Virus record (IMG/VR): IMGVR_UViG_642979322_000012
From: a virus
Lineage: Duplodnaviria; Heunggongvirae; Uroviricota; Caudoviricetes
Direction: 5' to 3' (one strand)
DNA length: 29,020 nucleotides
The position numbers were made by a program. Of the stretch, positions 21,001-24,000 are shown one piece after another. The stretch's first letter is position 1. Every line of letters starts with the position of its first letter.

Positions 21001-24000
21001 CTGGCGAATAATATCCGACAGTAATCACTCTGCGCAATAGCGCGGCCTTTTTCGTATTGCGGGCTGTTGTCTCTCTTCTGCCATTGTCCTGTAACTTCCG
21101 GATTTCAGCCCGCTCATCATTTTACTCACAATATTATCCCGGCCGGGAGGATTCATGGCATTTAAACACTACGATGTGGTCAGGGCGGCATCGCCGTCAG
21201 ACCTTGCTGATGCACTTGCGCAAAAAATTCGTGAAGGATGGCAACCATACGGTGGGCCGTTTTCTTCGTATACGGATGATGGCGCAGCACTTATTCAGGC
21301 GATTGTCGCAGAAGGTGATGTGAGCACACCTGTTGTGGTGAAGCTGACAGGTGGAGAAGGTGCAGTAATCAGCGCCACCAGCGACCCCGGGTATTACTTT
21401 GTTGTGGTTCTGGCAGGGCAGTCAAACGGCATGTCGTATGGTGAAGGTCTTCCGCTGCCGGAGACATATGACCGTCCGGACCCGCGCATTAAGCAGCTGG
21501 CGCGTCGCAGTACGGTGACACCGGGCGGTGTCGCCTGTAAATATAACGACATCATTCCGGCGGACCATTGTCTGCATGATGTGCAGGACATGAGCCGCCT
21601 TAACCATCCGAAAGCGGACCTGTCAAAGGGGCAGTACGGAACCGTGGGGCAGGGGCTGCATATCGCCAAAAAATTGCTGCCGTTTATACCGGCGAATGCG
21701 GGCATTCTGCTGGTTCCGTGCTGTCGTGGTGGTTCAGCGTTCACCACCGGAGCCGATGGCACATACAGTGACGCGAGTGGTGCCTCGGAGAATTCAACCC
21801 GCTGGGGTGTGGACAAGCCGCTGTATAAGGACCTTATCGGTCGAACAAAAGCAGCACTGAAGAAGAATCCGAAAAATGTGCTGTTTGCCGTGGTGTGGAT
21901 GCAGGGGGAATTTGATTTTGGCGGTACGCCGGCAAATCACGCAGCACAGTTTGGTGCGCTGGTTGATAAATTCCGTGCAGACCTGGCGGATATGGCAGGT
22001 CAGTGCGTCGGTGGCTCTGCTGACGGTGTTCCCTGGATATGCGGGGACACGACGTATTTCTGGAAGCAGAAGAACGAATCCTCGTACCAGACGGTGTACG
22101 GCAGCTACAAAAACAAAACGGAAAAGAATATCCATTTCGTACCGTTCATGACGGATGAGAATGGGGTGAATGTGCCGACGAACAAACCGGAAGAAGACCC
22201 GGACATTCCGGGTATCGGATATTACGGTTCGAAATGGCGTGACAGCTCAGCCACCTGGACGTCACAGGACAGGGCGAGCCATTTCAGCGCCTGGGCACGC
22301 CGTGGGATTATTTCCGACCGTCTGGCAACGGCGATTTTGCGCCATGCGGGAAGAGTGGCGCTAAACGCGGGGGCATCATCGACAGTATCAGAGGTGCGCC
22401 CGTCATCGCCTTCCGGTGCAGAAGCCACAGGCGTCACAACACTGCTCTCTTACCTTGCCAGCGAGTCAGAGGGAAGCCTGAAAGTACAGGGATGGTCAGC
22501 CAGTGGCGGCAGGGCAGAAGTGGTCAGCGATGCGGAGGGAACCGGAGGTAAGGCAGTGAAGCTGACCAAGGAAGCCGGTAAAAGCAGCTGGGTGCTGGAG
22601 TACGCCGCGGGCAACGGTGCGGCTCTGTTACAGAAAGGGGGGCAGATTCGCTGCCGCTTTAAGGTTTCGGGAGTGCTGGCTGCGAACCAGTATGTTATGG
22701 CGTTTTACTGGCCGGTATCTTCACTGCCACAGGGCGTTGCCCTGACCGGAGACGGGGGGAATAACCTGCTGGCAGCGTTCTACATCCAGACAGATGCAAA
22801 AGACCTGAATGTGATGTACCACAATGCGAAAGTGGCGACAAACAACCTGAAACTGGGAACCTTTGGCGCATTTGATAACGAATGGCATACGCTGGCCTTC
22901 CGCTTTGCCGGGAATAACAGCCTTCAGGTGACGCCGGTTATTGATGGTCAGGATGGCACACCGTTCACGCTGACGCAGTCACCGGTCAGTGCATTTGCGG
23001 CGGATAAACTGCATGTGACAGACATTACCAAAGGTGCGACTTACCCGGTGCTGATTGACAGCATTGCGGTGGAAGTGAACAACACAGACACTGCGGCATG
23101 ATAAAAAAAACCGCCAGCGACAGGAATGGACGCTGGCGGTGGTAATACCTATGGAGAAAAAATAAAGGAACGATACTTTCGTGCTCTGGTTTTTTAAATG
23201 AAAACAGTTCTTATTGTCAACAATAACGGAAAGAAATTATGACATTTCTGAACCAGTTAATGCTGTACTTCTGTACGGTGGTCTGTGTGCTGTATCTCCT
23301 TTCGGGTGGGTACAGGGCCATGCGTGACTTCTGGCGCAGACAGATTGACAAAAGGGCCGCTGAGAAAATCAGCGCCAGTCAGTCAGCCGGAAGCAAACCC
23401 GAAGAGCCGCTCATTTAGCGGCAACTTTCTTAATCACATCTTTCGACGAGAAAATCCCATGTCAGAAATTACATCCCTGGTCACTGCTGAAGCAGTGAAG
23501 GAAGTCCTGCGCTCTGAAGAAGTCCGGAGCGCACTGAAACAGAAACTTCGCCATAACCTGGAAGCGCGTCTTGATGCAGAGGTTGATGCCATTCTGGATG
23601 AGCTGCTGGGCGCACCGGCAGCTCCGGAGCCGGAAGGCATCGCGGGTGAGGGGAGTGCTTCAGATAGCGGTGACCCCACACCGGACAGCGACATGATGAT
23701 GTAAGCATGCGTCAGGGACCATCGGTGTGTGCCGGTGGTCTTTTTTATTGTTGTGAGCTTCCGGATTGCGGGAGACGGGGTATGTACCAGATGGAAAAAA
23801 TCACAACAGGTGTGTCATACACCACGTCAGCGGTGGGAACGGGCTACTGGTTCCTGCAGTTGCTGGACAGGGTTTCCCCGTCTCAGTGGGCGGCAATAGG
23901 CGTGCTGGGGAGTCTGCTGTTTGGGCTGCTGACATATCTGACGAACCTGTATTTCAAGATTAAAGAAGACCGGCGTAAGGCGGCACGGGGAGAGTAAGCT

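Follow-up and report, generated by a model that had tools for sequence, protein, structure and literature searches.

The window, by which we mean the whole 29,020-nt stretch of DNA that was analysed (IMG/VR record IMGVR_UViG_642979322_000012), belongs to a Stx1-converting phage and shows 100% identity to AP005153 over the query. In its late region, nanS-p, a DUF1378 gene, a DUF826 gene and an S21-type holin gene follow one another on the plus strand, the two small genes matching Sakai ECs2971 (59 aa) and ECs2970 (81 aa). Both open reading frames were found where a preliminary description of this DNA had placed them, each with an ATG start, at 23239–23418 and 23459–23704, and the shorter is the one that had fallen below the ORF-track cutoff, being a single residue short of the tool's default of 60 aa. 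That description had recognised neither protein; both in fact belong to known Pfam families of uncharacterised function, DUF1378 and DUF826, which the NCBI pipeline already names in approximately 1,000 complete E. coli genomes, or about one in five. In O157:H7, the pair often occurs in several copies.

Upstream of the pair, nanS-p (21155–23101, plus strand) encodes a phage sialate O-acetylesterase with DUF1737, SASA and DUF6645 domains according to Pfam. It is the 5′ neighbour of the pair in every lambdoid locus with enough sequence, and is inherited together with the pair in both lambdoid and Mu-like phages. Directly 3′ of the nanS-p stop codon lies a GC-rich inverted repeat (ccgccagcg...cgctggcgg, 23108–23135) with an A-run on its 5′ side, which a terminator scan reported as a terminator-like site on the minus strand. 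Downstream, S (23782–23997, plus strand) encodes a 71-aa class II pinholin of the P21 type with an MYQM dual start (PF04971, E = 7e-33); the DUF826 stop codon ends at 23704, leaving a gap of 77 nt, in line with the earlier observation that this frame closes shortly before the pinholin. A 96-aa, N-terminally extended version of S was rejected, the ATG at 23707 being absent or running into a stop in other lineages.

A scan of 22900–24100 gave no sigma-70-like promoter, and Rfam had no match in 23100–23800. GC content was uninformative as a mark of foreign origin. Mitomycin C raises the nanS-p transcript by 1–2.4 log units (PMC10462455); this induction, together with the lack of a sigma-70-like promoter nearby, suggests that the pair would be carried on the Q-dependent late transcript.

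Predicted properties of the two proteins

The DUF1378 gene (23239–23418, plus strand; ORF B78) matches PF07125 from end to end, with residues 1–59 aligned to model positions 1–59 (E = 2e-39, 134 bits against a cutoff of 25), as well as phrog_494. Alignments, hydropathy and an AlphaFold2 model revealed the features of the family, namely a length of approximately 50–64 aa, an N-terminal hydrophobic helix and a conserved LYF..V..LYL..GGY pattern, with LYFC..VC.LYL.SGGY as the conserved transmembrane segment. The protein had been described as having a single transmembrane segment and a basic tail. One hydrophobic stretch is indeed present (Kyte–Doolittle maximum of 1.98 in a 19-residue window, residues 3–21), but the basic character holds for the juxtamembrane part only, because the extreme C-terminus, KPEEPLI, is acidic; the sequence C-terminal to the hydrophobic stretch, RAMRDFWRRQIDKRAAEKI, contains 7 K/R and 3 D/E; the pI is 9.2. 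The AlphaFold2 model consists of a single helix (residues 2–50), and the topology predicted for DUF1378 is that of a single-pass inner-membrane protein, oriented N-out/C-in, with a basic cytoplasmic helix. Members of PF07125 and phrog_494 (ECs2971, ORF B78 and BP-4795 ORF44) share its length, transmembrane segment and basic helix, and an identical protein has been deposited; we found no difference. Inspection of the sequence for a lipobox, as in an o-spanin of the Rz1 type, revealed none in DUF1378. A purine-rich, Shine-Dalgarno-like GGAAAG (23228–23233, plus strand) lies 5 nt 5′ of the ATG; in related loci its place is taken by GGTAAG, GGGAGGG or GGAGAT at an equal distance.

The DUF826 gene (23459–23704, plus strand) matches phrog_311 and, at full length, PF05696, with residues 1–75 aligned to model positions 1–75 (E = 3e-40, 136.6 bits against a cutoff of 25). 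As previously described, its product is highly acidic (18 D/E versus 7 K/R, pI 4.2), and it is predicted to be cytoplasmic. A conserved two-helix N-terminal domain (residues 1–51; helices 2–17 and 20–50 in the AlphaFold2 model) is followed by a variable, acidic, Pro-rich disordered tail, modelled with low confidence, that ends in M-M/L; the same 51-residue helical domain and acidic tail are seen in the PF05696 and phrog_311 protein ECs2970. A Foldseek search of the model against the PDB returned no match. A weak Shine-Dalgarno-like GAGAAAA (23448–23454, plus strand) lies 4 nt 5′ of the ATG; ACGAGAAAATCC(C/T)ATG at the start is kept in nearly all loci, and divergent homologues have AGGAG or AAGGAG at the Shine-Dalgarno position.

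Selection on the reading frames

Conservation of the frames and their Ka/Ks, a check proposed in the preliminary description, was assessed across 228 related loci, comprising 68 unique DUF1378 and 85 unique DUF826 sequences. Both frames are open and their ATG starts are kept (in 227 of the 228 loci for DUF1378), and pooled dN/dS is 0.22 for DUF1378 and 0.37 for DUF826, compared with 1.2–2.3 in four other frames; within DUF826, the ratio is 0.20 for the N-terminal domain and 0.47 for the tail. Both are genuine protein-coding genes under purifying selection. The opposing view, that these are chance frames or non-coding sequence conserved under some other constraint, for example RNA elements that precede S, could appeal to the shortness of both frames and to an antisense 86-aa frame with a similar dN/dS: the fifth frame, which shares third codon positions with the sense frame, gives 0.34 and 0.37. 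These low values are explained by the shared wobble positions, and the fifth frame carries stops, whereas the sense frames alone are uninterrupted throughout the 68 and 85 unique sequences and they alone show conservative amino-acid substitutions. Homologues at only 40–55% identity also retain the residue pattern together with strong Shine-Dalgarno sites. A chance or non-coding origin is contradicted by these data, and we regard it as extremely improbable. The antisense 86-aa frame itself (ORF b73, 23434–23694) was rejected, being interrupted in 49 of the 85 unique DUF826 sequences.

The same data bear on a 139-aa "long form" of DUF826 that starts at a GTG (23285–23704, plus strand) and is annotated as ORF B79 in AP005153, as the 933W L0106 type and as phrog_8301. 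Its first 58 codons mostly overlap DUF1378 in a different frame, show no purifying selection (dN/dS of 1.5 in the overlapping frame) and begin at an unconserved start codon; from these sequence comparisons, the long form is probably an annotation artefact and L0106 of 933W an over-extended version of DUF826. Older annotations give DUF826 134–148 aa and start it inside DUF1378, whereas the selection data favour an ATG-start form of 81–101 aa.

Genomic contexts of the pair

Among the 228 lambdoid loci, the pair lies immediately 5′ of S in 209, at a constant distance of 73–78 nt. In Mu-like prophages, a trio of esterase, DUF1378 and DUF826 genes occupies the right end, between the tail-fibre/gin region and com-mom, with identities to the window of 57%, 55% and 40%, respectively, and in P2/Mu-like prophages, the two genes follow a tail-fibre assembly gene with their order inverted; no holin was seen within the fetched flanks of the Mu-like or P2/Mu-like copies. 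Each gene also occurs alone. DUF826 directly follows Rz, and one such copy, in Salmonella phage Fels-1, is not annotated; DUF1378 follows the spanin genes, closing two distinct lysis cassettes at their 3′ ends. One of these, in BUCT709-type phages, consists of an S21-like pinholin, a SAR endolysin and spanins, and the DUF1378 start overlaps the spanin stop as ATGA, an overlap that would fit a role in lysis and speaks against an accessory gene. The true embedded o-spanin of BUCT709 (LVGC) lies inside the i-spanin gene. The other cassette encodes an unrelated 93-aa holin-like protein and a 203-aa endolysin. DUF1378 has the transmembrane segment and charged tail of a holin, yet each lysis cassette bearing it already has a separate holin, and we rejected it as a holin candidate.

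Conversely, S21-type holins are present in the CFT073 and E2348/69 prophages, in which the pair is absent, and in PPyecE_EH1910 the holin follows 150 nt after the esterase with no pair between them. Among 347 phage records with the esterase, 306–309 also carry each small gene, a co-carriage that would fit an esterase-linked role and runs against an accessory one. Across the unrelated Enterobacteriaceae temperate-phage backbones, the genes always occupy slots typical of accessory genes, whether ahead of S, beyond Rz, or behind the tail-fibre genes or at the right end of Mu.

Searches for distant relatives gave little beyond this. Two scans of a species-representative genome collection yielded no confirmed relative, PADLOC defence models matched neither protein at E up to 1, NCBIfam gave no match, and profile searches with both families against PDB sequences returned noise (E of 0.2 or worse). 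A literature search by family names, Pfam and InterPro numbers and locus tags turned up a paper in which the domains are mentioned in passing, and no paper or experiment assigning a function to either gene.

Discussion

The best explanation of these observations, with a probability of roughly 0.55, is that the two genes form a mobile, moron-like accessory module that is late-transcribed and is not part of the pinholin timing machinery. Accessory genes of lambdoid and P2/Mu phages, such as lambda bor, lom and HK97 gp15, are small and non-essential, and occupy slots after Rz (where lambda bor lies), between Q and S, or after tail-fibre genes. Like them, the pair comes and goes among phages that are otherwise syntenic and moves between different backbones; unlike them, it has no promoter of its own that we could find and no lipoprotein or signal sequence. 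The promoter scan thus lends no support to a classic moron with expression in the lysogen. The preliminary description had offered two interpretations, lysis-timing regulators or small cargo genes, and taken as a whole it is partly supported: the cargo alternative is borne out by the recurrence of both genes in several unrelated backbones, always in classic accessory-gene slots, whereas a pinholin-specific timing role is not supported. The distance of the trio from lysis genes in Mu-like prophages, the solitary occurrences of each gene and the holins without the pair all speak against pinholin-specific regulators.

A broader link to lysis deserves consideration, in which DUF1378 at the membrane and DUF826 as its cytoplasmic cofactor would influence the triggering of the holin or some other late step at the membrane. 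The position immediately 5′ of S at a near-invariant spacing, the terminal place of DUF1378 in two lysis cassettes (once overlapping the spanin stop), the DUF826 homologues directly after Rz, the presumed late expression of both genes and charges complementary to the basic holin C-terminus all favour it, and T4 RI/RIII and P1 LydB can be named as functional analogues. We nonetheless consider it unlikely, as slots beside lysis cassettes are also general accessory-gene slots, the MYQM dual start of S21 supplies its own antiholin, and no holin or antiholin family is among the Pfam or PHROG matches of either protein. Moreover, the obligate linkage to a holin that would mark an antiholin was not found, given the holin-free Mu-like and P2/Mu-like contexts, which lack any lysis gene within the fetched flanks, and the S21-bearing prophages and phage without the pair. 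T4 RI/RIII is an antiholin pair with one membrane-tethered and one cytoplasmic member (RIII, 82 aa), RI acting in the periplasm; it resembles the present pair as two small proteins, one membrane and one cytoplasmic, that could act on a holin. There is, however, no sequence similarity, DUF1378 is almost without a periplasmic part, and the pair also occurs where no holin is nearby, while S21 phages can do without it. It is more doubtful still that DUF1378 is a new kind of single-TM late membrane effector, adjusting a last membrane step of infection across holin classes, for example lysis timing or inhibition or the exclusion of superinfecting DNA, with DUF826 as its acidic cytoplasmic cofactor; were this so, a functional analogue of RI/RIII would be spread through Stx and other enterobacterial prophages.

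A link to the esterase instead would make the two proteins NanS-p accessory factors, for example an assembly chaperone or a membrane staging factor for a capsid-decorating enzyme. The three genes are adjacent and similarly diverged in two unrelated backbones, most esterase-bearing phage records carry each small gene, and NanS-p is part of the virion and is processed in several steps, its phi24B homologue gp84 being a capsid-decorating protein (bioRxiv 10.64898/2026.04.10.717836). In the examined part of the phi24B virion proteome file, however, there were no peptides of either small protein, the pair or its single genes are also found without any esterase, and PPyecE_EH1910 has the esterase without the pair. 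Recombinant NanS-p is reportedly active by itself, in the work of Saile and Feuerbaum. This makes an esterase-dedicated role improbable in our view.

In the accessory-module reading, DUF1378 would insert into the inner membrane N-out/C-in, its strongly conserved transmembrane segment would contact a membrane partner, and a basic amphipathic helix would be displayed on the side of the cytoplasm; DUF826 may be its frequent cytoplasmic partner or modulator, a proposal drawn solely from charge complementarity and conserved adjacency. Our best guess is a late, membrane-proximal accessory function that would help the phage or the lysogen whatever the type of holin. The pair has the Shiga-toxin/nanS-p region on one side and the toxin-releasing lysis genes on the other; should it affect when cells lyse, how NanS-p is deployed or superinfection, this would matter for the release of toxin and for the spread of Stx phages. 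What is added here is modest, namely correct gene models, purifying selection and a portability that is not tied to the pinholin.

The gap separating the stop codon of DUF826 from the start of the holin gene contains a terminator-like, GC-rich hairpin followed by a T-run (23714–23753, plus strand; terminator scan). All 32 sequence variants fold, with 10–13 bp stems of differing sequence and energies of −15 to −25 kcal/mol. Because hairpins of this type are also present upstream of S in prophages without the pair, the lambdoid hairpin belongs to the region upstream of S and is not a terminator specific to the module. Hairpins 3′ of DUF826 are seen in both the lambdoid and the Mu-like contexts.

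Two conserved genes between the esterase and the pinholin

The local gene order in the window is stx1AB, nanS-p (21155–23101; DUF1737, SASA and DUF6645 domains), a 59-aa ORF (23239–23418, +), an 81-aa ORF (23459–23704, +), S (23782–23997; a P21-type class II holin with an MYQM dual start), R (24002–24535; phage lysozyme family), an Ant-like gene and Rz. The coordinates of the two small ORFs in the preliminary description proved exact, and its remark that the second ends just before the pinholin start corresponds to 77 nt between the 81-aa stop codon and the holin ATG. Window 23102–23790 is 100% identical to the Stx1-converting phage AP005153 (E. 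coli O157:H7 Morioka V526), and it has its counterpart in prophage Sp15 of strain Sakai, where the two ORFs, ECs2971 (59 aa) and ECs2970 (81 aa), lie between ECs2972 (nanS-p) and ECs2969 (holin S). The AP005153 annotation begins S at an in-frame ATG at 23707 (23707–23997, 96 aa); other lineages lack that ATG or their frame meets a stop, so the 71-aa form with the MYQM start is the conserved one.

The preliminary description recognised neither product, and both in fact belong to catalogued families. Pfam DUF1378 (PF07125) covers the 59-aa protein over its whole length (E = 2e-39, 134 bits, cutoff 25), with phrog_494 as a further match, and the 81-aa protein matches DUF826 (PF05696; E = 3e-40, 136.6 bits) and phrog_311; NCBI pipeline names are "DUF1378 family protein" and "DUF826 domain-containing protein". 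Both genes are thus already known, as uncharacterised families. The sole paper naming both domains that our literature search found, PMC10462455, records no more than that they lie between nanS-p and S.

To assess coding potential, about 236 related IMG/VR loci were fetched and analysed by script, of which 228 carry both genes. In the conservation and Ka/Ks check that had been proposed for these ORFs, starts and frames were kept: DUF1378 begins with ATG in 227 of the 228 loci (length 58–64 aa) and DUF826 in all of them (81–101 aa in 218), and pooled Nei-Gojobori dN/dS was 0.22 for DUF1378 (68 unique nucleotide sequences) and 0.37 for DUF826 (85), the latter comprising 0.20 in the N-terminal 51 codons and 0.47 in the tail. 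Four of the five other frames gave dN/dS of 1.2–2.3; the fifth, the antisense frame with common third codon positions, gave 0.34 and 0.37, as expected. All DUF1378 sequences have stops in this antisense frame, and the mean BLOSUM62 score of its substitutions was about −0.8 to −1.0 (non-conservative) compared to +0.35 in the sense frames. Purine-rich Shine-Dalgarno-like motifs lie at proper spacing from both ATGs, with strong versions (GGGAGGG, AGGAG, AAGGAG) in divergent homologues.

Two competing gene models were rejected. The antisense 86-aa ORF b73 (23434–23694, −) has stops in 49 of the 85 unique homologous DUF826 sequences, and its dN/dS equals that of DUF826 because third codon positions are common to both. 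A long form of DUF826, annotated in AP005153 (ORF B79, 139 aa) and 933W (L0106, 148 aa) and present in phrog_8301, would occupy window 23285–23704, starting inside DUF1378 in a different frame. Within the overlap the long frame has a dN/dS of 1.5, with no purifying selection, and the long-form start codon differs in type and position between loci; the data thus support the 81-aa gene model with its ATG start.

Predicted properties of the two proteins

DUF1378 had been described as a single-TM protein with a basic tail. One strongly hydrophobic stretch (residues 3–21) is indeed followed by the basic stretch RAMRDFWRRQIDKRAAEKI, but the protein finishes with a short acidic end; its pI is 9.2. 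AlphaFold2 predicts a single continuous helix over residues 2–50 (mean pLDDT 76). A K/R cluster follows the hydrophobic segment and no charge precedes it, which, by the positive-inside rule, predicts an N-out, C-in orientation. The transmembrane segment is unusually conserved, with L9, Y10, F11, V15, L18, Y19, L20, G23, G24 and Y25 invariant even in comparison with a 36%-identical homologue; because of this invariance, the segment probably makes a specific contact inside the membrane, acting as more than a plain anchor.

DUF826 is highly acidic, as previously described (18 D/E versus 7 K/R, pI 4.2). AlphaFold2 predicts helices at residues 2–17 and 20–50 (pLDDT up to 95), with the acidic, Pro-rich tail beyond them modelled at low confidence. 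This tail varies in length and sequence, and nearly always terminates in M-M/L or T-L. Its ends in the window (23693–23704) and homologues almost always read M-M-M, M-M-L, T-M-L or T-L before the stop, which could reflect recognition of the C-terminus or a constraint at the nucleotide level. Structure and sequence searches of the PDB returned no relatives of these proteins, and no defence-system model matched them.

Distribution and genomic contexts

The decisive evidence came from distribution and context. Among 5,426 complete E. coli genomes, 1,008 have at least 80% of a 591-nt stretch that runs across the gene pair into the beginning of S, and when all matches are counted, shorter ones included, a single genome has as many as 10 matching places. 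The GenBank phage collection holds 347 records with the esterase, 306 with DUF826 and 309 with DUF1378. A word-indexed search found relatives in Escherichia and Shigella only; an exhaustive profile search with DUF826, along with searches seeded by divergent members, yielded further relatives. Six contexts emerged overall.

In lambdoid phages, the order Q ... esterase–DUF1378–DUF826–hairpin–S21–R–Rz holds at all 228 loci, apparent exceptions being contig ends, and includes a Citrobacter farmeri version. E. coli Mu-like prophages, labelled 'inserted Bacteriophage Mu-like phage' in two GenBank records, carry tail fibre/tail-fibre assembly–(gin)–esterase–DUF1378–DUF826–hairpin–(com)–mom, then host genes, with no lysis gene in the flanks. 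Here the esterase is 57% identical to the window's from residue 78 on, DUF1378 55% and DUF826 40%, indicating comparable divergence of the trio, as one unit. The N-terminal DUF1737 domain of this esterase is replaced: at two fetched loci (L246:2669–4750 and L257:2781–4835) SASA and DUF6645 are kept, and roughly 110 residues at the N-terminus show no relationship to DUF1737, which in phi24B binds the capsid. The Mu-like esterase may thus have another domain for attachment, suited to its different virion.

The genes also occur apart or in reversed order. BUCT708/709-type phages and 24 IMG/VR loci have an S21-like pinholin, an endolysin sharing about 77% identity with R of the window, an i-spanin with an embedded o-spanin (lipobox LVGC), DUF1378, whose ATG overlaps the spanin stop, and a tailspike; these loci contain no esterase and no DUF826. 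Another phage type has DUF1378 between a 74-aa ORF and HNH–terminase; before the 74-aa ORF come, in order, a 93-aa holin-like protein (unrelated), a 203-aa endolysin and i-spanin. At P2/Mu-like tail ends the order of the pair is reversed (tail fibre–assembly protein–DUF826–DUF1378–acetyltransferase on the other strand–Dam methylase), with DUF1378 alone in one variant. Next to the reversed pair at one such locus (L313:4223–4807, −) is a 194-aa protein resembling, by eye, a hexapeptide-repeat acetyltransferase, then a Dam-like methylase; these constitute another accessory-gene cluster. Finally, DUF826 stands alone directly 3' of Rz in a non-Escherichia enterobacterium (whose rpoE operon shares 84% identity with the E. 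coli one) and in Salmonella phage Fels-1, as an unannotated DUF826-like ORF or coding remnant between Rz and the small terminase subunit (locus L340:4501–4587, equivalent to NC_010391 15790–15876). Conversely, phage PPyecE_EH1910 has its holin 150 nt after the esterase without the pair, and CFT073 and E2348/69 prophages have an S21-type holin without it.

A probable role as portable accessory genes

DUF1378 and DUF826 occupy slots (between Q and S, after Rz, and after tail-fibre genes or at the Mu right end) that in phages typically hold non-essential accessory genes. The pair is not confined to pinholin loci, nor does the pinholin need it, and the same holds for the esterase. Given these slots and this independence, we read DUF1378 and DUF826 as portable accessory genes. 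Of the two roles previously suggested, lysis-timing regulators or small cargo genes, the varied backbones and accessory slots favour cargo; pinholin timing is not supported and is the less likely role, as the pair is found without a pinholin in the flanks and the pinholin without the pair. A broader lysis-associated role, for which the main support is that DUF1378 comes last in two different lysis cassettes, seems unlikely to us. We are similarly doubtful that the pair serves the esterase, even though the trio diverged together in two backbones and gp84, the NanS-p homologue of phi24B, undergoes processing and decorates the capsid, to which DUF1737 anchors it (2026 preprint, bioRxiv 10.64898/2026.04.10.717836); among the matches listed in the phi24B proteome data of that preprint there are no peptides of DUF1378 or DUF826.

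The pair is probably co-transcribed with the late operon in the window's phage, since nanS-p rises 1–2.4 log units on mitomycin C (PMC10462455) and window 22900–24100 has no sigma-70-like promoter. DUF1378 would sit in the inner membrane and engage a membrane target through its conserved transmembrane segment, with its basic helix on the cytoplasmic side, and DUF826 may be a frequent cytoplasmic partner or modulator.

Hairpin and other features of the window

A GC-rich, terminator-like hairpin with a T-run (23714–23753) lies about 30 nt 5' of the holin ATG. It precedes S in every lineage, and all 32 unique variants fold into 10–13 bp stems (−15 to −25 kcal/mol) that differ in sequence, with compensatory changes judged by eye. 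Since it is also found 5' of S in prophages without DUF1378/DUF826, the hairpin belongs to the S-upstream region, where it plausibly shields the lysis genes from transcription without Q modification.

A GTCAA(C/T) motif is located 16–25 nt 5' of the DUF1378 start codon in nearly all upstream-sequence variants, and in the window (23213–23222) sits inside the palindrome TTATTGTCAACAATAA. ARAGORN called a tRNA-Ala (anticodon CGC) at 10792–10874 (−), at 83 nt unusually long for that tRNA, and an Rfam gathering-threshold scan gave no tRNA there. Rfam matches include an ALIL pseudoknot at 12426–12542 (−; 121.5 bits), the frameshift signal of IS3-family insertion sequences, implying an IS element within the window, and the lambda cIII thermoregulator element at 7333–7391 (−; 88.5 bits). 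The spacer between stx1B and nanS-p holds a full-length match to the sRNA family STnc100 (20723–20932, +; 176.7 bits, gathering score 47).
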